Positions 2,866 to 61,037 of a stretch of 64,000 nucleotides of DNA are shown one piece after another; position 1 is the stretch's first letter; each line of letters begins with the position of its first letter. The notes beneath the pieces are model-generated. The model was not told the origin of the DNA. It saw only the letters and a program-made list of their open reading frames with translations, and did no database searches. This stretch comes from an uncultured Candidatus Saccharibacteria bacterium. Its GTDB lineage: Bacteria > Patescibacteriota > CALEFQ01. The stretch covers positions 225,184-289,183 of the forward strand of contig OZ246404.1 of the NCBI GenBank assembly GCA_965230955.1, read 5' to 3'. The position numbers were made by a program, and so were the translations under genes.

Positions 2866-2950
2866 AGTTTAAAACAAATCAAAAATCAAAAGCTAAAAGC
2901 ACCTTACATTTTAATTTTTAACTTCTTTTAGATTTTAGTTTTTAAGCTTT
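2866..2950. repeat. AT-rich imperfect inverted repeat built from short tandem units (aaatcaaaaatcaaaagctaaaag / cttttagattttagtttttaagcttt).
   Basis: Read directly from the sequence. Member of the intergenic repeat-hairpin family. Confidence 0.4.
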
Positions 2951-2961
2951 ACATTTTCTGC

Positions 2962-2967
2962 TATAAT
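2962..2967 (+). promoter_or_regulatory. -10 TATAAT box 6 nt upstream of the ATG at 2974, suggesting a leaderless transcript.
   Basis: gctTATAATgtatttATG; there is no room for an RBS. Confidence 0.3.
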
Positions 2968-2973
2968 GTATTT

Positions 2974-3342
2974 ATGTCCCTCAAGCTCTACCTTCTATTA
3001 TTGTTAGCGGTTACCCTGGTCTGCTGGGGGCTTTTCGCCTTTATCCTCTTCAGCGTTGATCCGGAAGGTGGTAAACTGCCGGTAATCGCTTTTTATGCCG
3101 TGCTGGGATTTGCGGCCATGGGGACTTTTGCCCTGGCCGGCTATGCCATTCGCTCCAAAATGAGCCGAGGCGAAGAATTATATGCCAATCTGGGGATTTC
3201 GTTGCGACAGGGTTTGCTCCTGTCGATCGGCTTGCTCGGGGTGCTCTTGCTCCAGTCGATTCGTTTGCTGAATTGGTGGGACGGGTGTCTCTTGGTCGGC
3301 TTTCTGGTTTTGTTGGAATTTTTCTTTTTGTCGAGGAAGTAG
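2974..3342 (+). CDS. small hydrophobic membrane protein (3-4 TM), function unknown
   Basis: ORF is strongly hydrophobic (LLLLLAVTLVCWGLFAFILF...). It sits directly after the -10 box. Confidence 0.45.
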   Translation: MSLKLYLLLLLAVTLVCWGLFAFILFSVDPEGGKLPVIAFYAVLGFAAMGTFALAGYAIRSKMSRGEELYANLGISLRQGLLLSIGLLGVLLLQSIRLLNWWDGCLLVGFLVLLEFFFLSRK

Positions 3343-3383
3343 ATAAGATGTAAGAAGTAAGATATAAGATATAAGATATAAGA
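3341..3383. repeat. tandem heptamer array (ATAAGAT x about 5) abutting the pheS start codon
   Basis: agataagatgtaagaagtaagatataagatataagatataagaATG. Confidence 0.5.
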
Positions 3384-4406
3384 ATGGAAGAAGAATTAAA
3401 AAAATATTTAGCTGAGGCGCTGGGGCGGATAGAGACCGCGGGGAGCGAAGACGCCTTGGAAAAACTGCGCGTGGAATATCTCGGCCGCAAAGGGCGGGTG
3501 AGCTTGCTTTTGCGCCAGGTCAAGGATTTGACGATTGATGAAAAGAAAAAAATCGGCGCGCTGGGCAATGAGATCCGCCAAAAATTAGAGGCGTCGATCA
3601 TCGCCAAGAAAAGCGGACTATCTTTGGCCAAATATAAAAATCTGGCTCAATCGGAGTGGATTGATGTGACGGAGAAGGGAACAGCGCCGAATTACGGCAC
3701 ACTTCATCCCATTTCCCAGGTAATTTATGACATGATCGATATTTTCACTTCCATGGGCTATGAAACGGTCTCGGGCCCGGAAGTGGAAACAGACTATTAT
3801 TGTTTCGAAGCGCTCAACATGCCGCCCGGACATCCGGCGCGCGACATGCAGGATACTTTTTATCTAAAAAACGGTTTGGTCCCGCGGACGCATACTTCTG
3901 CGGTTCAAATTCGCTATATGGAAAAACATAAGCCGCCATTTCGAATCATCGCTCCGGGGCGCGTTTATCGTAATGAAAAAGAGGATGCCACCCATACTTC
4001 GGTTTTCACGCAACTGGAAGGGCTGGTGGTAGGTGAGGATATCACTTTTGCTGATTTGAAAGGCACTTTGATTAAGGCGGTCAAAGCCGTGGCCGGTCAG
4101 GACAAGCAGGTCCGTTTCCGTCCGTCTTTCTTCCCGTATACCGAGCCTTCCGCCGAGATTGATATGTCCTGCATGCGTTGCGGGGGAAAAGGTTGTCCCG
4201 TTTGTAAAAACAGCGGCTGGGTTGAATTGGGGGGGAGCGGGATGGTTCATCCCCAGGTTTTCAAAAATGTCGGCTACGACCCGGAAAAAATTCAGGGTTT
4301 TGCTTTTGGTTTTGGTCCGGATCGAGTCAAGTCGATGAAGCACAGTATAAAAGACGCGCGATTATATTATCAGAACGATTTAAGATTCTTGCGGCAATTT
4401 TATTAA
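3384..4406 (+). CDS. pheS: phenylalanine--tRNA ligase alpha subunit
   Basis: Class II aaRS motifs are present (FRPSFFPYTEPSAE, GWVELGGSGMVHP). Confidence 0.95.
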   Translation: MEEELKKYLAEALGRIETAGSEDALEKLRVEYLGRKGRVSLLLRQVKDLTIDEKKKIGALGNEIRQKLEASIIAKKSGLSLAKYKNLAQSEWIDVTEKGTAPNYGTLHPISQVIYDMIDIFTSMGYETVSGPEVETDYYCFEALNMPPGHPARDMQDTFYLKNGLVPRTHTSAVQIRYMEKHKPPFRIIAPGRVYRNEKEDATHTSVFTQLEGLVVGEDITFADLKGTLIKAVKAVAGQDKQVRFRPSFFPYTEPSAEIDMSCMRCGGKGCPVCKNSGWVELGGSGMVHPQVFKNVGYDPEKIQGFAFGFGPDRVKSMKHSIKDARLYYQNDLRFLRQFY

Positions 4407-4446
4407 TAATTCAAAATTAATAATGCAAAATGCATAATTAAGCATT

Positions 4447-4824
4447 TTGTCGGGAGGGTCTATGTCTCAAAGGGGGGAGAATATTAGGTTGAGGAGTAAG
4501 AAATTTGCTCTTAATGTCCTAAGGTTGGTTAGGATGTTTCCCCGGTGCCAGGAAGGGAAAGTTATCGGACAGCAGTTGTTAAGAGCATCAATGTCGATCG
4601 GAGCAAATTTATTTGAAGCTTCGGCGGCAAGAAGTAGAATCGAGTTTTGCAGTATCTTGAACATTTCTTTGAAAGAGGGGGTAGAAACACGATATTGGCT
4701 AGAAATGGCCTTGGGCGCAGGATTGGTTAAAGATCATGATAGCGCGAAAATATCAGACGAATTGAACCAGATCTGCCGTATCATTACTACGATTGTTTTA
4801 AAAACCAAGCAACTTGCCAAATAA
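4447..4824 (+). CDS. four-helix-bundle protein of the 23S rRNA intervening-sequence protein family; the ATG at 4462 preceded by GGGAGGG is the likely start
   Basis: Matches the family signature (NIRLRSKKFALNVLRLVRMFP...QLLRASMSIGANLFEA...EFCSILNISLKEGVETRYWLEMA). Confidence 0.7.
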   Translation: MSGGSMSQRGENIRLRSKKFALNVLRLVRMFPRCQEGKVIGQQLLRASMSIGANLFEASAARSRIEFCSILNISLKEGVETRYWLEMALGAGLVKDHDSAKISDELNQICRIITTIVLKTKQLAK

Positions 4825-4859
4825 TTTTACATTTTGAATTCTGCATTTTGAATTAACCT

Positions 4860-7277
4860 ATGAAAATTGTCTACAGTTGGCTAAGAGATTACGTGGCGAC
4901 AGATAAGACTCCTGAAGAAATCAAGGAGCTTTTGACTTTTCATGTCGCGGAAGTGGAATCGGTTCAGCCGGTAGGGGCAATGGCCAATGTGGTGGTGGGC
5001 AAAGTGTTAAACGTCAGGTCACATCCCAACGCTGATAAATTACATCTGACGACGGTTGATATTGGCGGTGAGGCGCCCTTAGAAATAGTGTGCGGTGCAC
5101 CGAATGTAGCTGTTGGCCAGTTAGTCCCGGTCGCTCTGCCCGGTGCGGTTCTGCCCGGCGGATTTAAGATTGAAAAGCGGGCGGTGCGGGGAGAGATGTC
5201 GGACGGCATGATTTGCGCCGAGGATGAACTGGGCCTGGGAAAAAATCACGAGGGTATTATGGTTTTGCCGGCTACTTATAAAATCGGTGATACTTTTTCT
5301 CCGGCGGGTGGCGACACGGTAATTGATGTCTCGATCATGCCCAATCGGCCGGATCTGATGTCGCATCTCGGCGTGGCGCGCGAACTGGCGGCGTTGGAAA
5401 AGAAAGCCGTCCGCGTCAAAGATTATCCGTCGCTTCCGGGCGCGGAAAATATCCTGAACGTGAAAATCGAAGACCAAAAGATCTGCCCGCGGTATTCGGC
5501 CTGGTTGATCGGCGGCATAAAAATCGGTCCCTCCCCGGAATGGATACAGAAGCGATTAATGGCGGTCGGCTTGCGGCCGATCAATAATGTCGTCGACCTG
5601 ACCAATTATTTAATGTATGACGTCGGCCAGCCGTTGCACGCTTTTGATTTTGACAAAGTGGCCGGCGGCCGGATGGTGGTGCGCGGGGCGCGCGAGGGCG
5701 AAGTTGTCGTGACGCTGGATGGCGGAAAACGATCATTGAAAAAGGGCATGCCGATCATTCAAGACAATGAAAAACTGATTGACCTGGCCGGAATTATGGG
5801 CGGGCAAAACAGCGAGGTCGGTGATTCGACGACGACGATAGTCTTACAGGCTGCGAATTTCGACGGAATCGCGATTCGGCAGGCTTCCCGAGCGCTGGGA
5901 CATCGCACTGACGCTTCCGGTATTTATGAAAAAAACATTGATCCTAATTTGACTTGGCCGACTTTGGCCAAAGGATTTTCTTTGTTGAAAGAAATGATCC
6001 CGACCGCGACCGTGCGGCAAGTGATTGATCTGTCGGCGGTAAAAGTCGAGCCGAGGAAGATTGAGATGGAGGCTATCCGGGTCAATAAATTTTTGGGCAC
6101 GTCTTTGACGGAGCGAGAAATCGTCGAGGCGCTGACCAGCCTGAATTTATCGGTGGCGGGCGAAAAACAATTAACCGTGAAGGTGCCGACCTATCGCCGC
6201 GATTTATCTTTGCCCCAGGATTTGATTGAAGAAGTGGCGCGCTATATCGGCTACGATAAAATTCCGGCCAAACTGCCGATGGGCGAACTGGTGCCGCCGC
6301 CGAAAAATTGGGAACTATACTGGGAAAAGAAAGCCAAAAGGATTTTGGTGGGCTGCGGTTTTTCCGAGGTGGTTAATTATTCTTTCAATAGCCGGGAAGA
6401 AATCGCCGAGCTGGGTTTGGATCTGGAAGAATACTTGGAAGTCGCCAATCCGATCAGTCCCGACAACGCCTATATGCGGGCCAGCTTGATTCCGAATGTT
6501 TTGAAAAATGTCAGAAATAATCTGAAAGAATTCCCCGCCTTTTCTCTGTTCGAACTCGGCCATGTGTTTTACCAGCTGCAAAATGCGGCGGGGGAGCGGG
6601 GTATCGCGGAACAGCCTAAGCTCTGCGGTGTGATTGTCGACAAAAAAATGGAATCGCATTCGCCTTTACGCAGTCCGCTATTTCTCCAAGCCAAAGGCGT
6701 GGTGGAGTTGTTGTTGCGCCATTTCGGCTATGATCAAGATGCCGGTGATTATATGCATTTCGATATTCATTCCCGGGCATTTCACCCCGGGCGCGTGGCC
6801 GTGATTCGGGTGCCCGTCAAAGGAGATGGTGAATTGGCCGGATCGGTTCACGAGGATATCGGTTATGTCGGCGAAGTTCATCCGGCCTTGCTCCAGGCTT
6901 ACGGCATCAAGGCGGAAGTGATGCTGTTTGATCTCGATTTTGACAAGCTTAGCCGTCTCGCGACCGAAAAACGCTCCGTCAAGGATATCGGAAAATTTCC
7001 GGCAGTCACGCTGGATGTGGCGCTGGTGGTTGATCTGAAGGTGCTGACCAGCGAAATTGAAAACGCTCTCGGCGACGCCGGCGGTGACATGCTGGAAAAT
7101 GTGGAATTATTTGATGTTTATGAGGGGAAAAATTTGCCGGACGGCAAGAAAAGTTTGGCTTTCCATTTGGCTTATCGTTTGCCGGATCGGACGCTGACCG
7201 ATGAGGTGGTGCAAGCCCAACACGAAAAAGTTTTGGCGGCGGTGAAAAATAAATTCGGGGCGGAGGTAAGAAAGTAA
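4860..7277 (+). CDS. pheT: phenylalanine--tRNA ligase beta subunit
   Basis: N-terminal tRNA-binding domain (VVGKVLNVRSHPNADKLHLTTVDIG). B3/4 and B5 regions are present. Length 805 aa. Confidence 0.95.
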   Translation: MKIVYSWLRDYVATDKTPEEIKELLTFHVAEVESVQPVGAMANVVVGKVLNVRSHPNADKLHLTTVDIGGEAPLEIVCGAPNVAVGQLVPVALPGAVLPGGFKIEKRAVRGEMSDGMICAEDELGLGKNHEGIMVLPATYKIGDTFSPAGGDTVIDVSIMPNRPDLMSHLGVARELAALEKKAVRVKDYPSLPGAENILNVKIEDQKICPRYSAWLIGGIKIGPSPEWIQKRLMAVGLRPINNVVDLTNYLMYDVGQPLHAFDFDKVAGGRMVVRGAREGEVVVTLDGGKRSLKKGMPIIQDNEKLIDLAGIMGGQNSEVGDSTTTIVLQAANFDGIAIRQASRALGHRTDASGIYEKNIDPNLTWPTLAKGFSLLKEMIPTATVRQVIDLSAVKVEPRKIEMEAIRVNKFLGTSLTEREIVEALTSLNLSVAGEKQLTVKVPTYRRDLSLPQDLIEEVARYIGYDKIPAKLPMGELVPPPKNWELYWEKKAKRILVGCGFSEVVNYSFNSREEIAELGLDLEEYLEVANPISPDNAYMRASLIPNVLKNVRNNLKEFPAFSLFELGHVFYQLQNAAGERGIAEQPKLCGVIVDKKMESHSPLRSPLFLQAKGVVELLLRHFGYDQDAGDYMHFDIHSRAFHPGRVAVIRVPVKGDGELAGSVHEDIGYVGEVHPALLQAYGIKAEVMLFDLDFDKLSRLATEKRSVKDIGKFPAVTLDVALVVDLKVLTSEIENALGDAGGDMLENVELFDVYEGKNLPDGKKSLAFHLAYRLPDRTLTDEVVQAQHEKVLAAVKNKFGAEVRK

Positions 7278-7278
7278 A

Positions 7279-7332
7279 AGATATTAAGAATATTAAGAGT
7301 ATTAAGATATTAAGATATTAAGATATTAAGAG
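7279..7332. repeat. tandem octamer array (NTATTAAG x about 6) just after the pheT stop
   Basis: aagatattaagaatattaagagtattaagatattaagatattaagatattaagag. Confidence 0.6.
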
Positions 7333-7365
7333 GGCGGCGATGAGCGGCTCTCTTTTTTAACGCAA

Positions 7366-7404
7366 AAAAAAGACCGTGTGATCATCGAGGGCATGATGAC
7401 ACGG
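7366..7404 (-). terminator. intrinsic terminator for the minus-strand gene ending at 7418
   Basis: Hairpin gaccgtgtgatcat/atgatgacacggtc (one mismatch). It is followed by TTTTTTTT when read on the minus strand. Confidence 0.55.
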
Positions 7405-7417
7405 TCAGAGTGAAAGT

Positions 7418-8677
7418 TTAGCGCATGATTCGGTTGAAAATGGCGCGGAAGCTTTCTCGGTCCAGTTTGGATTGCTCGGAGCATCGCCAGAGGAGGTAAT
7501 TGGCATTACCGTTGAGGCGGTACCAGCCGGCGACGTTTCCCATGGCTGCCAGGTCGTCGGTTTCGCCAGGCAGATGTCCCATTTCTTTCATTTCTTCATG
7601 GCGGATGTCGGCGACCAGCCTGTCGACCGGGAAATTCGATCCGGTATTCCAGAATACCGCGATTTCATCAGTGCGCGGATTGTGCTGGACGAGAACACCT
7701 CGGCATTTGCGAAATTTCATTGCCTTGTGGAGATCAGGGTTGGAATGTGACAGGCACACCAGTGCGAGGCCGCGCTGTCGTGGAGTATCTTTGACCGCTT
7801 GGTCAAAGACCGCGAGGGCGAGATCGAATCGTTGTTGTCCCATGGCTGCCTGCTGGAGGAAAAACTTGATGGCGGACAGGACTTCGAAGCGTGTCTGTTG
7901 ATTGAGGTTCGGAAAATGCTGGAGTCGAGCCAGGAGTGCAGCCGGGTGGAACCCGAATTTGTCGAGGCGCCGGCACTTCCGATCGGTGGCGAAAAACCCG
8001 CCGTATTCTTGGAGCTTCTTCATGATGCGGATTGAGGTGTCGATTTGATGCTTCTCAGCCCACTGGATCAACATATGATTGAATTCCGGGATGTGGTTGG
8101 CGTGCACAGGGCGGTCTGATGGTGTGCGGGTTCGCATTTCTGCTTCGGCCAAGATAATGTTGGTCAGATGGTCAAAATAGACTTGGTCTGACGCTTCATT
8201 GTTCTTGGCTTCTTTGGCCATGTCGGCCCAGTGCCAGAAAAACGGGGCGCCGGTTTCGGCGCGGAAGTCCACGCTGTGGGTGGTATCCACCATTCGCACA
8301 TATTCCACCATTTCGTGCAGAGGCAAGTGGGCAGGAATATTGAGAAAGTTCCAGGCCAACGAGGCGGAGCACTGTTTTTCTGTTGCGTCACGATTCAGGG
8401 CGTGCTCATCGAACAGGCTTCCGCAGATCCCAACAGGAATGACGCCATCCAGCATGAGAGTTCGCCAGTCCAGTTTCGATATTTCATTGTGGCTGACGAA
8501 ATTCACCGTGGCGTTTCTGATTTCCGGGAAAATCCTATTCCCGTACCTGCTACGGAGGAGAGTACACGCCAGAATCTCATCAAAATGAGGTCCAACGTGC
8601 GTGAGTAGCGCCGTCCATTTTATGGACGACAAAGAGATCCCGAGCGCTTGTTCGAGCGCTTGTTTGGTCCAAGGCAT
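7418..8677 (-). CDS. putative metal-dependent hydrolase resembling the MYG1/UPF0160 family (tentative)
   Basis: N-terminal LTHVGPHFDEILACTLL resembles the MYG1 T-H-x-G-x-F-H-x-D-E-x-L-A-C motif, recalled from memory. RBS GGAAGGAGGA lies upstream. Confidence 0.35.
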   Translation of the reverse strand: MPWTKQALEQALGISLSSIKWTALLTHVGPHFDEILACTLLRSRYGNRIFPEIRNATVNFVSHNEISKLDWRTLMLDGVIPVGICGSLFDEHALNRDATEKQCSASLAWNFLNIPAHLPLHEMVEYVRMVDTTHSVDFRAETGAPFFWHWADMAKEAKNNEASDQVYFDHLTNIILAEAEMRTRTPSDRPVHANHIPEFNHMLIQWAEKHQIDTSIRIMKKLQEYGGFFATDRKCRRLDKFGFHPAALLARLQHFPNLNQQTRFEVLSAIKFFLQQAAMGQQRFDLALAVFDQAVKDTPRQRGLALVCLSHSNPDLHKAMKFRKCRGVLVQHNPRTDEIAVFWNTGSNFPVDRLVADIRHEEMKEMGHLPGETDDLAAMGNVAGWYRLNGNANYLLWRCSEQSKLDRESFRAIFNRIMR

Positions 8678-8878
8678 TTGTAATCCTCCTTCCTTGGAAT
8701 TTTGGTGAAGAACAAACGACTCGCCGAAGCGGGCCGGAGCGAGATCTTTCTCGCACCCCGCTGCCGATATTTCTATCTCGGCAATGGGGTGGGGAAAATG
8801 TGCCAGCCAAGAGGGTAAGTCTTGGCTGGAATGATCGACTGCTGGCGATAGGCGGGGCTCACTTTTCTGTATGGGATT

Positions 8879-9064
8879 TTAGGAGTGATCAGCCATCAGG
8901 GTGATGATAACGTATAAAGCTGATAACACTGCAACGCTACCTACTATTGCCGCACCGCTGGTATTAGCCGGCATGTCTTTGGTCAAGTAGCCAACGGTTG
9001 GTATGGCTGCTATCGCAGATACCACAAAACTGATCGTCAAAAATATTCTTGTTCTTGCCTGCAT
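8879..9064 (-). CDS. small membrane protein (61 aa)
   Basis: Two hydrophobic segments. A strong RBS AAGGAGG lies 6 nt upstream of the ATG. Confidence 0.4.
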   Translation of the reverse strand: MQARTRIFLTISFVVSAIAAIPTVGYLTKDMPANTSGAAIVGSVAVLSALYVIITLMADHS

Positions 9065-9283
9065 GATTTTCCTCCTTTCCTGAATTCAGGACTCGAAATC
9101 GTAGCACGTAATGGCCATTATGTCAATGCCAGGGCGTTTTTGTGGCTTTCGGGTCTATGCTCGCAATCCACATTTTCACCTTTACAAAGGACAAAATAGA
9201 TGCTAAATTGAAGGTAGTTAATTAGCCAATTTTTACTTTAATTTAAGCCAAAAGAGTTGGGGCGGGACTCTTTATTTTATTGA

Positions 9284-11426
<2,143 letters not shown>

Positions 11427-11435
11427 ACCGAAGAC

Positions 11436-11464
11436 TTGCCAACCATTTCAAGTTAGTCTATAAT
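11436..11464 (+). promoter_or_regulatory. sigma70-like promoter for secE-nusG-rplK
   Basis: TTGCCA - 17 nt spacer - TATAAT. RBS AAGAGGA precedes the secE ATG. Confidence 0.45.
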
Positions 11465-11706: not shown

Positions 11707-11718
11707 GGAAATTGATTT

Positions 11719-12264: not shown

Positions 12265-12337
12265 TTTTGAATTTCGTACCTGCCTGGCTTCCGTCCGAAG
12301 GCTTTCAGCCCGAGGCTCGGCGGGCAAGTTATGAATT

Positions 12338-15217: not shown

Positions 15218-15225
15218 TGTCGTTG

Positions 15226-15298
15226 GTCTTTTGTCTTTGGTCTTTGGCCAAATTTCAAAACCTAAAGACTAAAGACTAAAGACTAAAGACACCTCCTC
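15226..15298 (+). repeat. repeat hairpin (GGTCTTT units, then CTAAAGA x4) immediately upstream of the deaminase start
   Basis: ggtcttttgtctttggtctttgg ... cctaaagactaaagactaaagactaaagac. Arm mismatches are G-U compatible only in plus-strand RNA. Confidence 0.5.
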
Positions 15299-16256: not shown

Positions 16257-17747
16257 GTGTCCGCCCGCGATCATCGCCGGGCGACCACATGGGGTCGCCC
16301 CTACCAAGGCAACAATAATTTCATGCCAAAATCCAATTGGCCCAAGTATTATCACGACAAACTCTATCTCGGTGATCCGAAGTCATCGACGGCTTTGGTG
16401 ACGCTGTGGACGGTCAAAGAAGAAATTTGCCGGAAACTGCCGGCAAAAAGTTTTTGCGTGGCCGGCCAGCTCTATAGCAAGCGGGGGATCAGTTTCCTTT
16501 TGCGCAATATCTTGGCCAACCCGTCGATTCGCACGGTAATCGTTTGCGGGCGGGATGACACGAAATCGGGGCAGGCTCTGCTGGCCTTCGCCAGAAACGG
16601 CGTTGATAACGAATACCGCGTCCGTGGTACAGAAAACTTGGTGATCGACCGGGAAATTCCGCGCGATCGTTTGGAACTAGTTCGACGCCGAGTAAAATTC
16701 ATTAATTTGATAGGCATTGATGATCCGGCCAAGATTTTGCCTGCTGTCCGGCGAATCAAGCCTCAACCGCCATTCGCTCGACCGGAGATTTTCCCTCTGC
16801 CTCAGATTTCGCGCTCCCGTTGCTTGCCGGCCGAAGCCGGAATCCAAACAGTGCGCGGCCGATCGATTAGTACCGTTTGGCCGGCGATTCTGCGTCGGTT
16901 GATGCGCTTTGGGGTGGAGAGCCGACATTTTCACGGCAGCCAGGTTAAAGAGATTTTCAATTTAACCGCGGTGGTTACAGCCGAAAACTCGGCCAAGCCG
17001 AAGCTGATACCGGAATTCGGGTTTACCGCAACGGAATTAAAATCATATATCAAAAATTTTCTGAGCCCGGTCAAGGGCAAGGAAGAGTATACCTACGGCA
17101 GTCGGATGCGCGCTTTTCGAGGGATAAATCAAGTGGATGAGATGGCGCGTAAAATAAAAGGTTACGCCAATGATCGCGGAGCGCTATCGGTGCTTTGGGA
17201 TCCTACCACCGATAACGCGCCGCGCAAAGTTCCATGCTTGAGTTTGGTTCAGGCGAACGGGGAAGGCGATAAAATTAACCTGACGGCATATTTTCGCTCC
17301 AACGATATGTTTAACGGCTGGCCGCGCAATGCTTTCGCGCTTCGAGCTCTGCAGGCGGAACTTGCCAAGAAAACCGGGAAAAAGCTGGGCTGGTTGACGA
17401 CCATTTCAAATTGCGCCCATATTTATGAAAATGAATGGCCGCTGGCCGAGTCCGTGGTCAAAAAGTATTCCACGGCTTCCGCGTTCGAGCCGGATTCCCG
17501 CGGCGACGTTTTGATCGAGGTGCGCGGTAAAAAAATTGCCGTAACTCATTTATCGCCGAGCGGAGAGGTCCTGCATGACTGGTCTTTTGACGGACAAACA
17601 AAAAACGCCGCGCTCAAAATTATCAAGGATTTGCAACGCCAAGAGGTTTTTAGCGATGTTTATCACGCGGCCTATTTAGGAACCGAACTCCAGAAGGCAG
17701 TGCAGGCGATAAAACACAAAAAGAAATATGAGCAGGATAAAGAATAA
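16257..17747 (+). CDS. thymidylate-synthase (ThyA) fold enzyme with an N-terminal extension of about 195 aa: either dTMP synthase or a dUMP-modifying (hydroxymethylase-like) paralogue
   Basis: C-terminal 300 aa aligns by eye to ThyA: SVLWDP vs SAWN; catalytic PCLSLVQ vs PCHAFFQ; YFRSNDMFNGWPRNAFALRAL vs [21 protein letters not shown]; CAHIY vs DTHLY. Confidence 0.6.
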   Translation: MSARDHRRATTWGRPYQGNNNFMPKSNWPKYYHDKLYLGDPKSSTALVTLWTVKEEICRKLPAKSFCVAGQLYSKRGISFLLRNILANPSIRTVIVCGRDDTKSGQALLAFARNGVDNEYRVRGTENLVIDREIPRDRLELVRRRVKFINLIGIDDPAKILPAVRRIKPQPPFARPEIFPLPQISRSRCLPAEAGIQTVRGRSISTVWPAILRRLMRFGVESRHFHGSQVKEIFNLTAVVTAENSAKPKLIPEFGFTATELKSYIKNFLSPVKGKEEYTYGSRMRAFRGINQVDEMARKIKGYANDRGALSVLWDPTTDNAPRKVPCLSLVQANGEGDKINLTAYFRSNDMFNGWPRNAFALRALQAELAKKTGKKLGWLTTISNCAHIYENEWPLAESVVKKYSTASAFEPDSRGDVLIEVRGKKIAVTHLSPSGEVLHDWSFDGQTKNAALKIIKDLQRQEVFSDVYHAAYLGTELQKAVQAIKHKKKYEQDKE

Positions 17748-17815
17748 GATATTAAGATTTAAGATATTAAGAGTATTAAGATTTGAGATGTAAGATTTAA
17801 GATGTTGAGATATAA
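17745..17815. repeat. tandem array of TATTAAGA/ATTTAAGA octamers after the ThyA-like gene
   Basis: agatattaagatttaagatattaagagtattaagatttgagatgtaagatttaagatgttgagatataaga. Confidence 0.5.
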
Positions 17816-17949
17816 GAGGGGAAAGAAGTCGTGACTATTATTTGCCTCACTTGATTGATTGAACAGAGCGGGGTTTTTGTTTCTGATTTTCGGTTGCGGC
17901 CTTTTTAAAAAAAAGCTGCCAAACGAGTTTGGCAGCGTGAGCGATGTGT

Positions 17950-28676: not shown

Positions 28677-28682
28677 AGGTTT

Positions 28683-28765
28683 AAGTCAAAAATCAAAAGT
28701 CAAAAGTCAAAATGGGAATAGCAGATCTTTAGACTTTTGACTTTTTACTTTTGACTTTGAAAAAA
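28683..28765. repeat. repeat hairpin of CAAAAGT units (tcaaaagtcaaaagtcaaaa ... ttttgacttttacttttgactttg) in the thrS 5' UTR
   Basis: Inverted tandem heptamers lie between the T-box terminator and the thrS ATG. Confidence 0.5.
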
Positions 28766-29005
28766 CCTTTCCTGCCACAAAGTTGCAAAAGCACTTTGGA
28801 GCATGAAAGGTTTTTTCACGCGGTTCCATCCAAATTGGTTCTTGATTGCCCTGATAATGCTCAGGCGAGCAGCTCTCTTAATCGTGAATACGTTTTCGAG
28901 AACGGCGCTGTCCACTGTAAGCCAGATCCGCCCTTTGGTAAACTCCAGGACGGTATCTTCGCTTTTCTCGGACACCGGTTGGTAGCCGGTTGGCGCTGAT
29001 AATTG
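28756..29005 (-). ncRNA. T-box riboswitch-like leader of thrS
   Basis: Minus-strand AAUUUGGAUGGAACCGCG (plus coordinates 28819..28836) matches the T-box consensus AAUUAGGGUGGNACCGCG. It is followed by a terminator AAACCUUUC...GAAAGGUUUUUU (28756..28815). Confidence 0.5.
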
Positions 29006-37199: not shown

Positions 37200-37413
37200 A
37201 GATATTTTGTTATTTTTTAGGTTATTCTTATTATATCATATTATCAAAGAGGCGACAAGATAGGATGAGGGAATATCAAATAATAAATAACAAATAATCA
37301 ATAAAATCCAATAATAAATTAAAATTTCTGTGATTGAAATCCGATAATTAATTGCGGTTGGATTTTTTTGTCATATTGCTTGTCGTGGGGAAAACTGTTA
37401 TACTATAGATTGT

Positions 37414-44074: not shown

Positions 44075-44075
44075 G

Positions 44076-44130
44076 AGAAAAAAGATATTAAGAGTATTAA
44101 GAAAATTAAGATATTAAGAAAAATAGAAGA
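44076..44130. repeat. tandem TATTAAGA-type octamer array between prfA and prmC
   Basis: aaaagatattaagagtattaagaaaattaagatattaagaaaaatag. Confidence 0.5.
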
Positions 44131-46860: not shown

Positions 46861-46920
46861 TCGTTCCTCCTTGGGTTGGCAAAGAACTGTTCTTTGCAGT
46901 CTAGCGCCAAAGGCGGGGAA

Positions 46921-47052
46921 GTCAAGATAAGTCAAAAGTCTTCGGCGAGCTCAGCCGAGCCGTCAAAAGTCAAAAGTGAACAGCGGCGGGCTTGCAATTA
47001 CTGTGGCATTTAGATATACTTACTTTTGACTTTTGACATTTGACTTTTTACT
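46921..47052. repeat. repeat hairpin of AAAAGTC units in the divergent region between the HD gene and rpsB
   Basis: gtcaaaagtcaaaagtgaa ... tacttttgacttttgacatttgactttt. Confidence 0.5.
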
Positions 47053-47163
47053 TAATTTCTCATGCTCTTGATCCAGCCAGACCTGCCTCTCTAAGACCCG
47101 CTCAAGCGGGGCGAAGTGGGGTCCTGGCGGAGTTGATAGGGCAGAGGCTAAAGGACACAACTT

Positions 47164-50022: not shown

Positions 50023-50025
50023 AAT

Positions 50026-51179: not shown

Positions 51180-51231
51180 GACCATTACCACTCGTTCCGC
51201 TCTGGGCTTAGGCGTGTTCAACAATTTTGGG

Positions 51232-51317
51232 GGGCAGGTACCAAAGTGGTCAAATGGGCCAGACTGTAAATCTGGCGCCTTCGGGCTTCGCAGGTTCGAC
51301 TCCTGCCCTGCCCACCA
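51232..51317 (+). tRNA. tRNA-Tyr (anticodon GTA) with a long variable arm
   Basis: Acceptor gggcagg/cctgccc. Anticodon loop cTGTAaa. Variable-arm stem-loop. T-arm gcagg-ttcgact-cctgc. Encoded CCA. Confidence 0.85.
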
Positions 51318-51381
51318 AAATTGTTGAACAAAGTATATATTCGCTTGATTCGTATTTCATCCGCATTATATTTCTATCCGT

Positions 51382-52680: not shown

Positions 52681-52720
52681 AAACAGGCTGCCGATTGCGG
52701 TAGCCTGTGGCCGGATTCTT

Positions 52721-52975: not shown

Positions 52976-53005
52976 TTATATCCAATTATACTAAAAAGTC
53001 AAGCC

Positions 53006-54918: not shown

Positions 54919-54919
54919 T

Positions 54920-55972: not shown

Positions 55973-56019
55973 ATTAGTTTATAAGCCTGTCACCGGATCA
56001 CGACGAGCTCGGTCTAGTC

Positions 56020-56080
56020 GCAGGCAGGTCTTTGGTCTTTCGTCTTTAGCCAAAGACCAAAGACTAATGACCAAAGACTA
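56020..56080 (+). repeat. repeat hairpin of GGTCTTT/CCAAAGAC units in the uppS 5' region
   Basis: ggtctttggtctttcgtctttagccaaagaccaaagactaatgaccaaagac. Confidence 0.5.
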
Positions 56081-56082
56081 TA

Positions 56083-56843
56083 TGGATACATTCGCCTTGG
56101 CTAAAACTGAAGCCTTCAATCTATTGCAATCCAAAGCCGGTACGCAAGCGGTTGATTTGGTGGTGCCTAAGCATATTGGGATCATCATGGATGGCAATCG
56201 TCGCTGGGCGGAAGCGCGCGGTTTGGCGCGGGCCAAGGGGCATGAAGCGGGAGCGGTGGCGCTGGAACAGCTCACCGATTATGCCGCTAGGATCGGAGTG
56301 GAGGCCTTGACGGTCTATGCCTTTTCCACTGAAAACTGGCAAAGTCGAACCAAGATGGAAATTCGCGAATTGTTCGGTCTGATTAAATTGGTGCTCCGGC
56401 GCCGTCTCAAAAAGATGCAGGCAAATGGGGTCGTGCTGGGGCTGATCGGCGATATCCAAAGATTTCCTTTGAATTTACGGCGGGTTTTGTTTCATGCCAA
56501 GGAAGTCCTGAAGAAAAACAACCGGATCAAATTAAATTTGGCTCTAAATTACGGCGGACGGGATGAAATCTTGCGCGCGTTTAAAAAAATCACCGAGAAA
56601 AAAGTTTCAGCGAAGGAAATAAATGAGGAATTACTGGCTAAACATTTGGATACCGGCGGTTTGCCGGAGCCGGACTTGATCATTCGCACCGGCGGACGTC
56701 AGCGACTAAGCAATTTTCTGGTCTGGCAGTGTACTTACAGCGAGCTGTATTTTACCGACGCGCTTTGGCCGGATTTCGGTCCGGACGAGTTGGACAAGGC
56801 GATCCTGTACTATAGTCAGTGCGAAAGAAATTTCGGGAAATAA
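56083..56843 (+). CDS. uppS: undecaprenyl diphosphate synthase (start at MDTFALAK, after the repeat hairpin)
   Basis: HIGIIMDGNRRWA...ALNYGGRDEI... Confidence 0.85.
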
Positions 56844-56852
56844 CCGAACGAT

Positions 56853-56900
56853 AACAAACCCGCCCGCCGAATCGGCGGGCGGGTTTGTTATGTTTTATTT
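56853..56900 (+). terminator. strong intrinsic terminator after uppS
   Basis: Perfect 16-bp stem aacaaacccgcccgcc/ggcgggcgggtttgtt with loop gaat, followed by ATGTTTTATTTTT. Confidence 0.65.
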
Positions 56901-57812
56901 TTCCCGATTGGACATTCGCGATTTGTCGTTTGACTGCGGCGGCATCGGTTGCGTCTGAACCGGTATTTCCGGCGAGCGTCCCGGACGCAAACTGGCACCT
57001 CGCTCCTGTTGCTGTTTCCAGTAGGGTGAGGTATTCACTTCTTGCGGGTTTTCTTGAGAGATCAGCCCGATTTGGTCTTTGAGCGTGTCTTTGCCCAAAA
57101 CCTTGAATTCTTGGCGTGTGGGGAGGTGTCCTTTGTCTTTCTTGAAACTGAGGAAGCTTTGCTTCAATCGTTCAATCTGCCTGCCCAGCGTATCTTCCGA
57201 AATTATCCGCGATCCTTTGAATATATCATTCAAATCAACGAGGCTGGCCGGTTTTTCCGGAATTTCCCCGTTGTTATTTTCCATTTCTGTGAAAAGTTTG
57301 TCCAGTGCTTGGGCTAGTTTTTCCTGCAGGTATTCGGCGGTTTGTTCGCGGGTGGCTTCGACTCTGATCGGTGCTTCGTGGGGGAGGCGAGGACGTTTTT
57401 CGGCCACCGGTTGTTCCTCGATTTTTCCTTTTTCCGGAGGTTGTCCCTCGGGAATTTCCGGCTCGGGCTGGGGCTGTCTTTTTTCTCCGGTGTTGTCCAA
57501 TTGTTGCCGAATTTCTTCTTGCTTTCCTTCCAGTTCGCGGACTTCCTCGACCGTTTGCGGCTCTTCGCTGAATTCTGCCGGCGGCTCGGGAAATTCCTGC
57601 TGGAAAGTTTGTTCCGTTTGTTCGAGATTTTGTTTGTCTTCTTGGGCGGCCGGTCGCAGATCGGTCAGTGTTTCATCAATGTAATTGGCTTGTTCTTCCA
57701 AGCGTTCTTCTTCGGTGAAAGGCGGTTCGGACGGTTTTCCCTCTTGTCCTTCGGCGGATTGTTCTTGCTCCAGGCTGTCCGGAGTTTCCGGACTGTAATC
57801 TTTTGAAGTCAT
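56895..57812 (-). CDS. highly acidic Glu/Pro/Gln-rich low-complexity protein
   Basis: 305-aa ORF with more than 25% E+Q+P, e.g. ...EEPQTVEEVRELEGKQEEIRQQL.... No catalytic motif. Confidence 0.4.
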   Translation of the reverse strand: MTSKDYSPETPDSLEQEQSAEGQEGKPSEPPFTEEERLEEQANYIDETLTDLRPAAQEDKQNLEQTEQTFQQEFPEPPAEFSEEPQTVEEVRELEGKQEEIRQQLDNTGEKRQPQPEPEIPEGQPPEKGKIEEQPVAEKRPRLPHEAPIRVEATREQTAEYLQEKLAQALDKLFTEMENNNGEIPEKPASLVDLNDIFKGSRIISEDTLGRQIERLKQSFLSFKKDKGHLPTRQEFKVLGKDTLKDQIGLISQENPQEVNTSPYWKQQQERGASLRPGRSPEIPVQTQPMPPQSNDKSRMSNREK

Positions 57813-57910
57813 ATGTTTTTGATTAGGAAAAGTAGCATCTTTATTATGTTTTAAAAAGACATCACTGTCAATCTTGGCGGAAGCATTATTAGATGCTAGA
57901 CTTCACCAAT

Positions 57911-58522
57911 ATGATGGATAAATTAATCGACAAATTGGTTGCTGACGGGAAGCTGAAAACCCCCGTTATTATTCAAGCCTGGCGTCAAATCGACCGTGTC
58001 GACTTTGTGGCTGAGGATCAGAAACTTCATGCTTACGAGGATCGGCCCTTGTCGATCGGTTTCGGCCAGACAATTTCCCAACCGACCACGGTGGCTTTCA
58101 TGTTGGAATTATTGGATCCGCGTCCGGGACAAAAGATTTTGGACGTGGGTACCGGTTCGGCTTGGCAATCTGCCTTGCTGGGTCAGATAGTGGGCGAGTC
58201 GGGGAAAGTATACGGCGTTGAAAGAATTGAGACATTGCGGGCTCTCGGACAGAGTCGCCTTAAGCGCGCGGGCGTCAAAAACGTGGAAATCAATTTAGCG
58301 GTCAATCCGGTTGGCTGGCCGGCTGAAGCGCCCTATGATCGGATCATTTGCGCTGCGGCCGCGTCCGAGGCGCCGCGTGAACTTTTGGCACAGCTGAAAA
58401 TAAAGGGCAAAGCCGTTCTGCCGATCAATAACAGTATTTTCTATTTTGAGCGTAAAACTAAAGACGATTTTATTTCCCGGGAGTATCCGGGGTTTATGTT
58501 TGTACCCTTAATTAGTCGTTAG
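57911..58522 (+). CDS. pcm: protein-L-isoaspartate O-methyltransferase
   Basis: GQTISQPTTVAFMLELLD...LDVGTGSAWQSALL. Confidence 0.75.
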   Translation: MMDKLIDKLVADGKLKTPVIIQAWRQIDRVDFVAEDQKLHAYEDRPLSIGFGQTISQPTTVAFMLELLDPRPGQKILDVGTGSAWQSALLGQIVGESGKVYGVERIETLRALGQSRLKRAGVKNVEINLAVNPVGWPAEAPYDRIICAAAASEAPRELLAQLKIKGKAVLPINNSIFYFERKTKDDFISREYPGFMFVPLISR

Positions 58523-58612
58523 TCATTGGTCTTTAGTCTTTAGCCGGCAAATACCACGCGAAACGGATTTTTGAAAGCTAAAGACAAAAGACCAAAGACA
58601 AAAGACCAATCT
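58505..58612 (+). repeat. repeat hairpin (gtcattggtctttagtctttagc ... gctaaagacaaaagaccaaagacaaaagaccaat) between pcm and the next gene's ATG
   Basis: Imperfect inverted arms of about 30 nt. It ends 2 nt before the ATG at 58614. Confidence 0.5.
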
Positions 58613-58613
58613 C

Positions 58614-59696
58614 ATGAAAATCGTCATCTTTGCCGGCGGGGCGGGTACCAGGCTGTGGCCGCTCAGCCGCAAAAAAACACCCAAGCAATTCGATCCCATG
58701 TTTGAGGGCAAATCTACGCTCCAGCTGGCGGGGGAAAGGATCAAAAAGCTGGTTAGCTGGAGTGATGTTTATATTTCCACGCTGGATCAATATGCGCCGA
58801 TCGTTCGTCAGCAACTGCCGGAAATTCCCGATGAAAATATCATTACCGAGCCGGCTCGTCGGGATGTGGCTCCGGCAATCGGTTTGGCGATGATGAAGTT
58901 GCGTGATGTCGGCTCGGAACCGGTGGCGATTCTGTGGAGCGATCATTTGATGGATCGGCCCAAAGCTTTTCGGCGGGGATTGACGGTGGCGGAAAGTTTG
59001 ATCAAAAAAGATCCAGAGCGATTTATTTTCTTTGGCGAGCGGCCGCGGTATGCCGAACAAAATTTAGGCTGGATTCATATCGGAGCGATTCAACAAAAAA
59101 ACAAAGGGATTCCTCTGCGGTCTTTTCGGGGCTGGTTTTACCGGCCGCCCTTGATCAAATGCCGGAAAATGTTCGCTTCCAAGAAGTGGATTTGGAATCC
59201 GGGGTATTGGGTGACGACGCCGAATTTTGTGCTGGAGCAATTCCGTCTCAAACAGCCGGCGATGTATCGCCAATTGCAAACTATCGGACGAGCTCTGGGG
59301 ACTTCACGCGAGGGAAAAGTTTTAAAGCGCGTTTATCCGACTCTGGAAAAAGTTCATTTTGACAATGCTATCTTGGAAAAAATGAAGCCGAGCCAGGCCG
59401 TGGTTCTGCAATTGGATATGGGCTGGAGCGATCCCGGGACTCTTTACGCCATCAAAGAAGCCCTGCAAGCGTCAAAGTTAGCCAATGTTACCCGCGGCGC
59501 GGTTTTACCGTTTAATACCAAGGATTGTCTGCTCTTTAATGATGAACCGAAAAAATTATTAGCGGCGGTCGGTTTGGAAGGTATCATTGTGGTAGAAACA
59601 AAAGATGCTCTCTTGGTTGTGCATAAGGATCGTGTCCCGGAAGTGAAAAAAATGGTAGAATCTCTGGAGCACACTTCCTGGTCTCATTTGCTATAA
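58614..59696 (+). CDS. sugar-phosphate nucleotidyltransferase (mannose-1-phosphate guanylyltransferase-like)
   Basis: MKIVIFAGGAGTRLWPLSRKKTPKQF. Confidence 0.8.
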   Translation: MKIVIFAGGAGTRLWPLSRKKTPKQFDPMFEGKSTLQLAGERIKKLVSWSDVYISTLDQYAPIVRQQLPEIPDENIITEPARRDVAPAIGLAMMKLRDVGSEPVAILWSDHLMDRPKAFRRGLTVAESLIKKDPERFIFFGERPRYAEQNLGWIHIGAIQQKNKGIPLRSFRGWFYRPPLIKCRKMFASKKWIWNPGYWVTTPNFVLEQFRLKQPAMYRQLQTIGRALGTSREGKVLKRVYPTLEKVHFDNAILEKMKPSQAVVLQLDMGWSDPGTLYAIKEALQASKLANVTRGAVLPFNTKDCLLFNDEPKKLLAAVGLEGIIVVETKDALLVVHKDRVPEVKKMVESLEHTSWSHLL

Positions 59697-59705
59697 ATTT
59701 TTACG

Positions 59706-60812
59706 ATGCTCAATCTTCCCGACACCGAAAGTCCGACGGCCGGCCCGACTCGGCGTAAGTTATTTATCTTGATCGCTGTCGTTGTAGCGATTTTTTTGGT
59801 ACTGGCGATCGGTTATCTCTGGATGGAATATGCGGTCAAGACGCCGCTTGATCAGAATAACGCTCCCACCAAAAAAATCACCGTGTCGGCGGGATCGGGC
59901 GTGGCCGAAATCGGTGATCAGCTGGTGGATCAGCAAATAATTTCCGGCACCCTGCCTTTTAAATACTACGTTTGGAAGACCGGTAAAAAGAAAGATTTCA
60001 AAGCCGGTATTTATGAAATCAGTCCCAGCCAAAACATCATTGAAATCACGGATTCATTGAGCGGCGTTATGTCGGGTGAGATCCGGGTGACTGTCGTCGA
60101 AGGTTGGTCGAACAAGGCAATTCGGACGGTCTTGAGCGAGAAAATGTCCCTGCCGGCGGAAGGACAAGCTATCACCTTAGCCCAAAGAGAGGCCAAAGAC
60201 CGAGATTTTGATGAAGCGGTCAGCGCCCAATATAATTATGATTGGCTGAATGATGTCCCGCCCTCCCAAAAATTGGAAGGCTATTTGTTCCCGGATACTT
60301 ATCGTTTTTTCCGTGAAGCGCCCATGACGGAAGTGGTGGGAAAAATGTTGCATAACTTCGACCAAAAATTAACCGATGAGCGCCGAGAAAAAATCGTCGC
60401 CAGCGGTTGGACGATTAATCAGGTGATTACTCTCGCCAGTATCGTGCAAAAAGAATCGGTTGATGAAGATATGCCGAAAATCGCCGGAGTTTTTATCCGG
60501 CGTCTCCAAGAAAACCGGCGTTTGGAATCCGATGCCACGGTCAACTATGTTACCGGAAAGGGGGAGCGCCAGCCGTCGCTTGAGGATACGCGCCTGGATT
60601 CGCCCTATAATACTTATCGCCATGAAGGTTTGCCGCCCGGGCCGATTTGTAATCCGGGTCTGACCGCGATCGATGCGGTCTTGAATCCCGAAACGACCGA
60701 ATATCGGTATTTTCTCAATGCTCCGGACGGGCGGACTATTTACAGCCGGACTTATGAGGAGCACCTGGATAACAAGAAAAAATATCTGGATCAGGCGGAA
60801 GAGATCGAATAA
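59706..60812 (+). CDS. mltG: endolytic murein transglycosylase MltG (YceG-like)
   Basis: N-terminal TM segment. YceG core ...ESDATVNYVTGK...YNTYRHEGLPPGPICNPG. Confidence 0.8.
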   Translation: MLNLPDTESPTAGPTRRKLFILIAVVVAIFLVLAIGYLWMEYAVKTPLDQNNAPTKKITVSAGSGVAEIGDQLVDQQIISGTLPFKYYVWKTGKKKDFKAGIYEISPSQNIIEITDSLSGVMSGEIRVTVVEGWSNKAIRTVLSEKMSLPAEGQAITLAQREAKDRDFDEAVSAQYNYDWLNDVPPSQKLEGYLFPDTYRFFREAPMTEVVGKMLHNFDQKLTDERREKIVASGWTINQVITLASIVQKESVDEDMPKIAGVFIRRLQENRRLESDATVNYVTGKGERQPSLEDTRLDSPYNTYRHEGLPPGPICNPGLTAIDAVLNPETTEYRYFLNAPDGRTIYSRTYEEHLDNKKKYLDQAEEIE

Positions 60813-60823
60813 ATAAGCCTTTC

Positions 60824-60851
60824 TTGACAGTGCCCGGGTATCTGTTACAAT
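60824..60851 (+). promoter_or_regulatory. sigma70-like promoter heading the rplJ leader
   Basis: TTGACA - 16 nt spacer - TACAAT. Confidence 0.45.
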
Positions 60852-60931
60852 CTACTCACAACCTACTAATCGCGTCCGTAGACCGTCGGTGTCCCTTATC
60901 TAAGGGAATAAATCCGACGCAGGCGTTGAGT

Positions 60932-61037
60932 AAGAACATTAAGAATATTAAGATATTAAGAATGTTAAGAGTTGGGTGGCCATCATAACTCCAACCTCTT
61001 AATTATCTTAATATCTTAATACTCTTAATATCTTATT
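60932..61037 (+). repeat. long repeat hairpin of TATTAAGA-type octamers (arms of about 44 nt, loop gtggccatcataact) inside the rplJ leader
   Basis: aagaacattaagaatattaagatattaagaatgttaagagttgg ... ccaacctcttaattatcttaatatcttaatactcttaatatctt. Confidence 0.55.

Follow-up and report, generated by a model that had tools for sequence, protein, structure and literature searches.

Hypervariable arrays of 7-8-nt units in the intergenic spacers of a Saccharibacteria contig and their likeness to the arms of a four-helix-bundle gene cassette

A 64,000-nt stretch of DNA from an uncultured Candidatus Saccharibacteria bacterium (contig OZ246404.1 of assembly GCA_965230955.1, positions 225,184 to 289,183; hereafter called the window) carries arrays of tandem 7-8-nt units in the spacers between its genes, most often arranged as an array, a loop and the same array in inverted orientation. 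One pair of such arms encloses a gene for a four-helix-bundle (4HB) protein. The reading favoured here, with a probability of about 0.5 for the composite, is that the sites are hypervariable arrays, that they are kin, without an open reading frame (ORF), of this 4HB stem-loop cassette, and that they are processed by RNase III. Its descriptive parts, namely that the arrays are real, hypervariable and of the same class as the arms of the 4HB cassette, stand on far firmer ground than the RNase III step.

Arrays in the window and their turnover in relatives

Arrays were scored with Tandem Repeats Finder (TRF; period 7-8, at least three copies, score at least 40), and their coordinates are collected in Table 1. 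They were present at all 12 positions listed in a preliminary description of the window (by TRF and by reading of the sequences), with an array-loop-inverted array structure at eight and a tandem array only at four, and four sites were added to that list (37272-37304, 451-479, and the arms 4407-4450 and 4825-4859). The window has a G+C content of about 49%, and its spacers are A+T-rich. Intergenic DNA makes up 11% of the window and contained fifteen of the 16 arrays (binomial P=6e-14), and 100 dinucleotide-preserving shuffles of the intergenic segments produced a mean of 0.01 arrays, versus the 16 observed in the window. The preliminary claim that the arrays lie only between genes does not hold strictly, the departures being an in-frame array inside a helicase gene (451-479) and several arrays that overlap the final codons of three genes (gyrB, pcm and the ThyA-like gene). 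The helicase array sits in a variable linker, where the same codons carry AAAGTCA-type units in an 87%-identity relative (L083, 7092-7139; L084, 4203-4250). Array density was 0.25 per kb in the window and 0.011 per kb in a background set of 1.31 Mb made up of GyrB loci from 80 other taxa, a difference of about 22-fold. The closest GyrB proteins in the one-genome-per-species collection were from candidate-phyla-radiation (Patescibacteria) bacteria at 57-60% identity; these loci were too distant for orthologous comparison and were used as background only. The unit TAAGATA occurred 15 times within arrays and once elsewhere, ranking 7303 of 7908 outside the arrays. The sites thus consist of head-to-tail 7-8-nt units in at least three copies, above chance expectation; the units are not simply the commonest AT-rich k-mers without positional bias, and the inverted arrangement is enriched.

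Hairpin stems were 25-45 bp long, and seven of the eight hairpins had z-scores between -4.8 and -10 on both strands when compared with shuffled sequences, the exception being the weak hairpin at 2868; the hairpin at 11333-11425, for example, folded with a dG of -34.8 kcal/mol (z -7.9). Confusion with clustered regularly interspaced short palindromic repeats (CRISPR), already set aside in the preliminary description, is not supported: there are no spacers, and the units are 7-8 nt long and directly abutting, where CRISPR repeats would be 23-50 nt. The absence of a transposase was likewise borne out, as a Pfam scan of 43 window proteins contained no transposase, reverse transcriptase or REP-associated tyrosine transposase (RAYT; REP, repetitive extragenic palindrome). 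An Rfam search of the window at gathering thresholds returned three tRNAs only, with no match at the hairpins.

The units fall into three or four families. A TATTAAGA/ATAAGAT family was found at 3343, 7278, 11333, 17745, 44075 and 60930, an AAAGACN family at 451, 15218, 56025 and 58508, and a GTCAAAA family at 28680, 46918 and, loosely, 2868, while the unit AAATAAT was found at 37272. There is no single consensus: at least four unrelated unit types are present, units vary from site to site, and the loops are unrelated. An exact 18-mer, ATATTAAGAGTATTAAGA, which includes an odd 9-nt unit, occurred at four sites versus none expected. Irregularities of this kind, common to the copies of a family, indicate that the arrays are related by copying and did not arise by independent slippage alone. 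The same unit families are present in relatives at 69-90% protein identity, with 0.14-0.8 same-family arrays per kb, so that the family of elements is not genome-specific as had been proposed.

Contigs of these relatives, syntenic with the window, were obtained through homologues of pheS and of the GMPP-like gene. In the gyrB-secE spacer, a TAAGA-type hairpin is seen in the window and a GTCAAAA hairpin in L083, with no hairpin in L088 or L089; the secE promoter-like site just past the array position is kept in all four. Between pcm and the GMPP-like gene, the AAAGACN units of the window correspond to AAAGATC units in L097 (90% identity), to a small CTCAAAA hairpin in L099 and to no hairpin in L098, and each time the change of unit is carried by both arms. 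The ispG-uppS hairpin is absent in L099 (69% identity), and the ATAAGAT array of the pheS leader is degenerate in L086 and absent in L089. A hairpin related to that at 2868 is present in L083 (87% identity), with none in L088. The gyrB-secE, pcm-GMPP, ispG-uppS and pheS-pheT spacers are thus filled, empty or differently filled in relatives. Copy number also varied, as expected from slippage: in the NUDIX-deaminase spacer the left arm is constant at three units and the right arm has 4 CTAAAGA units in the window, 18 in L083 and 13 in L084, and the pheS-leader array has 5.7 ATAAGAT copies in the window versus 3.9 in L083, the L083 and L084 counts being taken from short-read metagenome assemblies in which long arrays can be miscounted. 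In the rplJ leader, L098 has only a short TAAGATA-CTAG-TTATCTT stem in place of the large TAAGATAT hairpin of the window, and the 11-mer that forms the loop of the gyrB hairpin in L083, TCAAATAAGGC, recurs in L088 with no arrays around it. The changing occupants and the array-free loop sequence indicate that arrays appear and disappear around a sequence that itself remains; the short stems in relatives may be either seeds or remnants of arrays. A second loop match (AGTTTATAGGG in the window and AATTTATAGCGG in L088) extended over a 7-mer only and was discarded as possibly due to chance.

These observations also bear on an explanation in which the arrays are a neutral by-product. Here, replication prone to slippage with a 7-8-nt period would enlarge, on both arms, short stems that were already there, by growth templated on the hairpin; the result would be functionless, and the 4HB genes would be there by chance. 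Among long simple repeats, heptamers are the most frequent class in many bacteria, and polymerase slippage has been proposed as the cause (Mrazek 2007, as summarised in PMC4679880); this background, the variable copy number between strains, the separate homogenisation of the arms, the simple TAAGATA/TATCTT stem of L098, the loop TCAAATAAGGC without arrays and the lack of sense-strand bias among stem mismatches (see below) all fit. The unit families spanning species, together with exact 18-mers that include irregular units at four sites, need copying between sites, however; the arrays are nearly excluded from coding DNA, and slippage alone would not be expected to produce a cross-phylum tie to one protein family or cassette homology that ends at the arrays, both of which are described below. 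A purely neutral origin is therefore considered possible, if rather unlikely.

The four-helix-bundle cassette

The 4HB gene lies in the pheS-pheT spacer between arrays that are the inverse of each other (Table 1), and its product has a weak match to Avd, the accessory protein of diversity-generating retroelements (DGRs). It is the only window copy with an ORF in the loop, the other 13 sites having none, and tblastn with two 4HB proteins as queries detected no additional copy, either in the window or among the 80 GyrB loci. In L083 a 4HB gene (11089-11445) is found at the same place, flanked by GTAAAAC x5 and its inverse. The two 4HB genes are about 50% identical, versus 87% for the flanking pheS, and both pheS-pheT spacers are exactly 453 nt long, which on comparison of the sequences points to very fast divergence or to replacement of the cassette. 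The corresponding spacer in L086, L088 and L089 is 34-91 nt long and has no 4HB gene. A hairpin without an ORF, located 2.4 kb from the L083 cassette and past pheT, shares the arms of that cassette, down to the junction TAAAATTGG and the irregular unit ACGTCTTACG; judged by these shared details, it is an ORF-less twin of the 4HB cassette.

The association was followed across other bacteria with 4HB homologues chosen by protein similarity alone, the flanks being examined afterwards. The family is large (5,673 clusters at 50% identity from a single query). On plasmids of Cyanobacteriota, Chloroflexota, Bacteroidota, Spirochaetota and Bacillota, 15 of 16 4HB homologues had an array of 7-8-nt units upstream and an inverted array downstream; with the present candidate-phyla lineage, bracketed 4HB genes are thus known from six phyla. 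The plasmid units differed at almost every locus (for example ATTCAAA in Nostoc and Aulosira, CAAGTCG, GGTCGGA, TTAGTGA x17, CACTGGT x12, and TAACTGA-type units in Chondrinema). Among 37 non-redundant 4HB loci from metagenomes, 27 had inverted complementarity of the flanks above a threshold score that was reached by 3 of 44 control ORFs and by none of 185 shuffles (p=2e-7). Arrays occurred at 2.8 per kb within 300 nt of these 4HB genes and at 0.16 per kb elsewhere on the same contigs, the latter still being 14x background; these more remote arrays were often ORF-less array-loop-inverted-array hairpins in spacers, near start codons and between tRNA genes. The same architecture therefore exists in six phyla, around 4HB genes and also without an ORF, and is not a type of element peculiar to one genome; by this design the window hairpins are linked to a kind of stem-loop element that is widespread but has hardly been described.

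The cassettes of Nostoc flagelliforme (L092, 602-1096) and Aulosira (L091, 607-1096) were 76% identical over 499 nt. This homology spans exactly the distance from outer array end to outer array end, with unrelated flanks, indicating that array, ORF and array together act as one discrete unit. The three cassette copies of Nostoc flagelliforme are parts of larger duplicated segments and are therefore uninformative on cassette borders. In L092 the cassette is flanked by a 10-nt direct repeat, GGAGTTGGGT, and by short ORFs that resemble one split gene; the repeat is a possible target duplication, observed in a single case.

An alternative is that the hairpins are non-autonomous elements of the REP type or miniature inverted-repeat transposable elements (MITEs), moved in trans by an enzyme whose gene lies in another part of the genome, with the arms as terminal inverted repeats. 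The preliminary description had called them REP/MITE-like; the dispersal and the presence or absence at orthologous sites stood, whereas genome-specificity and a common consensus did not. Their intergenic location, the sub-families with shared derived irregularities, the occurrence of the 4HB cassette as a discrete unit in unrelated contexts and the possible duplication GGAGTTGGGT around the Nostoc cassette would all be explained by mobilisation in trans. It accords poorly with loops that are unrelated between copies, with one hairpin whose loop is homologous to an array-free site in a relative, with tandem-only copies that lack a second end, with the want of transposase, RAYT and reverse transcriptase among the 43 window proteins, and with the eight window hairpins, at which no target-site duplications were visible on reading of the sequence. 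Overall, this explanation is regarded as unlikely.

4HB genes sit between operon genes, often in defence operons. On plasmids, those of L094, L100, L101, L102, L105 and L106 lie within defence operons (helicase-methylase, DUF1156-Swt1 HEPN, hsdS-hsdR and cas2-cas1), and that of L096 lies between the genes for a resistance-nodulation-division (RND) adaptor and an RND permease. The tip of helix 6 in a Saccharibacteria 16S rRNA gene (L009, 16729-16830) carries an insertion of about 60 nt formed by an ORF-less TTTAGAT-array hairpin (fold z -4.8), with 60 nt aligned where the Rfam small-subunit rRNA model has 3.

A wider and rather doubtful proposal is that 4HB genes and inverted 7-8-nt arrays form one selfish cassette system, hitherto unrecognised and spread across phyla, whose insertion sites are the spacers of operons, defence operons and the tips of rRNA helices. 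RNase III would remove the cassette from RNA, ORF-less array hairpins would be left behind or spawned, and the 4HB protein would help to make, copy or maintain the arrays. The short tandemly repeated repetitive (STRR) sequences of cyanobacteria, the TAACTGA repeats of Beggiatoa, rRNA intervening sequences (IVSs) and the window hairpins would then be faces of one element.

Position of the arrays and the RNase III reading

The window encodes housekeeping genes (pheS, pheT, gyrB, secE, nusG, rplK, thrS, dnaE, prfA, prmC, rpsB, ispG, uppS, rplJ and rplL), and the arrays are placed in several ways relative to such genes. They adjoin start codons without a Shine-Dalgarno sequence at pheS, the deaminase gene, uppS, the GMPP-like gene and thrS, while many other window genes have AGGAGG; they follow or overlap the stop codons of pheT, gyrB, the ThyA-like gene and pcm. 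The hairpin of the rplJ leader lies between a promoter-like site (60824-60851, 11 of 12 positions matched) and a terminator-like hairpin (61040-61055), the secE promoter-like site (11436-11464) likewise matched 11 of 12 positions, and a further promoter-like site (46992-47020, TTGCAA-17-TATACT) is located between two GTCAAAA arms.

Given their location inside operons and leaders, the arrays are inferred to be transcribed and to form double-stranded RNA stems of 25-45 bp. In the favoured reading, arrays would lengthen and shorten through slipped-strand mispairing, and whole arm pairs would occasionally be copied into new spacers. By analogy with the Coxiella IVS and the Haemophilus hmw hairpin, the stems would be substrates of RNase III, and cutting would split polycistronic RNA at the hairpins and excise the loop-borne ORF where one is present. 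It would also set the ends and the stability of the flanking cistrons, with array length acting as a mutable dial. The elements themselves would most likely be selfish or nearly neutral, tolerated since excision at the RNA level renders them harmless.

Several results weigh against this reading, above all against its RNA-level part. Among stem mismatches on the sense strand, G.U and A.C pairs were equally represented (58 vs 55 in the cassettes and 7 vs 7 in the window hairpins), and the sense strand was the stabler one in only 3 of 7 hairpins, so that neither comparison revealed a bias; there is thus no sign of selection for pairing in RNA. A DNA-level origin of the arm complementarity fits at least as well as selection in RNA, and the complementarity may stem from the way in which the arms form, by inverted copying in DNA. 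Five intergenic sites are tandem only and can form no stem, and arms are sometimes very unequal (3 vs 18 units). The stem of the window cassette is degraded to 11 bp (arm cofold z -3.7), compared with about 30 bp in L083 (z -6.6) and 31 bp in Nostoc L092 (z -10). The difference between 13 and 18 CTAAAGA units comes from short-read metagenome assemblies, which are prone to miscounting long arrays. No RNase III gene was present among the 43 window proteins scanned, and the heterogeneous positions of the arrays, at 3' ends, in 5' leaders and around a promoter, argue against one dedicated function.

The arrays next to start codons raise the question of whether they are periodic binding platforms for a protein that controls the adjacent gene at the level of transcription or translation, such as the 4HB/Avd-like protein itself (pentameric and nucleic-acid-binding), ribosomal protein S1 or a regulator. 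4HB genes and arrays do co-occur, the 4HB protein is related to Avd by its weak match, and the arrays at pheS, uppS, the GMPP-like gene and thrS adjoin starts without a Shine-Dalgarno sequence in the manner of the Beggiatoaceae TAACTGA repeats (PMC4679880). A binding platform seems quite improbable, though, as units vary between sites of one genome that has a single 4HB gene in the window, the orientation of the arms at start codons is inconsistent (4 A-rich vs 3 T-rich), and many arrays come after stop codons.

The arrays at stop codons might instead serve the upstream genes as intrinsic terminators or as stabilisers of the 3' end, termination elements having been among the suggestions of the preliminary description. 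Three or four hairpins or arrays follow stops (gyrB, pheT and the ThyA-like gene), and the gyrB hairpin comes just ahead of the secE promoter-like site with no other terminator between. Nevertheless, the array hairpins were never called by a terminator scan that did call neighbouring canonical terminators: their stems are A+T-rich, without the combination of a G+C-rich stem and a T run, and canonical G+C-rich terminators adjoin the arrays (7331+, 17915-17936, 28758-28818 and 61040-61055), a bidirectional terminator-like hairpin lying directly beyond the thrS array hairpin. Moreover, half of the hairpins adjoin start codons inside operons, where termination would harm. A role as terminators is accordingly held to be very improbable.

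Table 1. Arrays, hairpins and the 4HB cassette in the window (positions are those of the 64,000-nt window; z, folding z-score relative to shuffled sequences, with the strand in brackets).
Positions	Strand	Feature	Evidence
451-479	+	AAAGACN array, 4.1 copies, in-frame in UvrD/PD-(D/E)XK helicase gene	TRF; translation QGKRQKTKDK
2868-2946		Weak hairpin of AAATCAA/AAAGCTA-type units, between helicase stop and next promoter-like site	z -0.75 (+), -3.3 (-)
3343-3383	+	Tandem-only ATAAGAT array, 5.7 copies, filling the entire spacer up to the pheS ATG, without Shine-Dalgarno	TRF
4407-4450	+	Left arm of 4HB cassette, TTCAAAA/TGCAAAA units	Sequence; cofold with right arm
4462-4824	+	4HB '23S rRNA intervening-sequence protein' gene in loop, 120 codons, pheS-pheT spacer	PF05635 (E=5.7e-20), TIGR02436 (E=2e-23), PDB 2rld (E=7e-17)
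4825-4859	+	Right arm of 4HB cassette, inverted, ATTTTGAATT/TGCATTTTG	Sequence; cofold
7278-7331	+	Tandem-only TATTAAGA array, 6.5 copies, past pheT stop; contains 18-mer ATATTAAGAGTATTAAGA	TRF
11333-11425		Hairpin of TAAGA-type units, past gyrB stop and ahead of secE promoter-like site	Inverted repeat 43 nt, 79% complementary
15218-15292		Hairpin GGTCTTT x3 / CTAAAGA x4, filling NUDIX-deaminase spacer	dG -33.8 kcal/mol, z -8.0
17745-17817	+	Tandem-only TAAGATAT array, 9.6 copies, past stop of ThyA-like gene; shared 18-mer at 17764	TRF
28680-28760		Hairpin of GTCAAAA units, adjoining thrS start codon (- strand)	Inverted repeat 30 nt, 90% complementary; z -7.1 (-)
37272-37304	+	Tandem-only AAATAAT array in divergent spacer	TRF
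44075-44130	-	Tandem-only TATTAAGA array, filling prfA-prmC spacer; gene-strand reading TCTTAATA; shared 18-mer at 44085	TRF
46918-47056		Inverted GTCAAAA arrays around promoter-like site, divergent spacer of HD-domain gene and rpsB	z -5.2
56025-56080		Hairpin GGTCTTT x3 / CCAAAGA x4, ispG-uppS, extending to uppS start	z -7.1 (+), -7.2 (-)
58508-58612		Hairpin TTAGTCN x5 / AAAGACN x4; left arm overlaps pcm stop, right arm adjoins GMPP-like start	z -7.3 (+), -9.1 (-)
60930-61037		Hairpin of TATTAAGA units in rplJ leader	z -8.6 (+), -10.1 (-)

A few other features were recorded. G+C-rich GCCTGCC...GGCAGGC palindromes occur directly beside A+T-rich arrays and in some cases lie between two direct arrays (window 12279-12330, 46938-46960 and 61040-61055; L083 16523-16543; L088 9836-9885); these palindromes could be another small family of repeats, or else ordinary terminators. 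In the helicase gene, an in-frame TGA was found in two independent assemblies of the 87%-identity relative (L083 6836-6838 and L084 3947-3949), at a codon that is Leu in the window and in L086 (…GYED*WI…); it may reflect a pseudogene, recoding or a shared error. The stretch 16257-17747 encodes a 496-aa fusion of thymidylate-synthase-like, MtrA-like and pterin-binding DUF4346 domains, and the fusion is kept in L088 and L089. A tRNA-Tyr gene (51232-51317) is bracketed by a 24-nt inverted repeat (51215-51238 / 51307-51330, 96% complementary), which gives a perfect extra stem of about 16 bp outside the tRNA (TGTTCAACAATTTTG ... CAAAATTGTTGAACA) that may be a precursor processing stem.

Significance and comparison with known systems

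Simple predictions follow: RNase III would cut within the stems, array length would be mutable and may tune the neighbouring genes, and the cassette should behave as a discrete insertable unit. For annotation, array hairpins matter because they break short-read assemblies, overlap stop and start codons, and can be mistaken for terminators or CRISPR-like repeats. Searches of the literature outside subscription journals returned no paper linking 4HB genes generally to inverted heptamer arrays outside rRNA, and none on ORF-less versions populating spacers. The finding would gain in weight should the cassette and the ORF-less hairpins turn out to form a single mobile system.

The window elements resemble REP sequences, bacterial interspersed mosaic elements (BIMEs) and MITEs such as the Correia elements of Neisseria in being small dispersed intergenic palindromes that are present or absent between strains, that are inferred here to be co-transcribed with their neighbours, and that possibly affect RNA processing and stability. 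Correia hairpins in Neisseria mRNA are cut by RNase III. Unlike these families, the window elements are without a conserved consensus, a conserved loop, target duplication or an associated RAYT or transposase (among the 43 proteins), and their arms are simple-sequence arrays whose unit varies by site.

A closer likeness in architecture is found in the 23S rRNA IVSs of Coxiella burnetii and Leptospira (PMC4990558), in which a PF05635 ORF is located in the loop of a long stem formed by terminal inverted repeats, as it is in the window cassette. The ORF of the Coxiella IVS belongs to the same protein family and has two or three GACAGAT heptamers upstream of it, the number varying between strains. 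RNase III excises this IVS by cutting the stem of the terminal repeats, the 5' cut being at the first repeat, and the IVS is regarded as a selfish, phenotypically silent element (PMC4990558). The window elements differ in that they are found in protein-coding operon spacers and mRNA leaders, not in helix 25 or 45 of 23S rRNA, most copies have no ORF, and both arms are made of tandem units.

For a heptamer repeat hairpin in a 5' leader, the closest parallel is the (ATCTTTC)n repeat of hmw1A/hmw2A in Haemophilus influenzae, a transcribed 5'-UTR (untranslated region) repeat that forms one arm of a long hairpin, is cut by RNase III and affects expression, and whose changes in repeat number require the hairpin, transcription and RNase III (PMC12721329). 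A candidate counterpart in the window is the hairpin at 60930-61037, which is downstream of a promoter-like site and would be transcribed from it. The hmw repeat is, in contrast, a single pathogen locus whose right arm is a G-rich region and not an inverted array, and its role in adhesin phase variation has been demonstrated, whereas the neighbours of the window elements are housekeeping genes.

With the STRR sequences of cyanobacteria and the TAACTGA repeats of Beggiatoaceae, Cyanobacteria and Bacteroidetes (PMC4679880), the window arrays share tandem 7-nt units with a strongly intergenic location, a frequent end a few bases ahead of a start codon without a Shine-Dalgarno sequence, and a patchy distribution across phyla; the Bacteroidota cassette of L096 even has TAACTGA-type units. 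Translational control has been proposed for the Beggiatoaceae repeats (PMC4679880). The STRR and TAACTGA repeats were reported to be direct arrays with a single fixed heptamer or a small number of them. MacGregor found one indirect repeat among about 170 sets, and that paper mentions neither a link to four-helix-bundle genes nor ORF-less versions of a cassette (PMC4679880). By contrast, inverted arrays prevail in the window, and its units are diverse and rich in A+T.

The window elements thus share features with IVSs, with the hmw repeats, with the STRR and TAACTGA repeats and with REP/MITE elements, and fail a defining feature of each. The heptamer repeats of cyanobacteria and sulfur bacteria, the rRNA IVSs and the 4HB family have each gone unexplained for decades and have been treated separately; in the window and its relatives, heptamer repeats, an IVS-type stem-loop and a 4HB gene occur together in one architecture.

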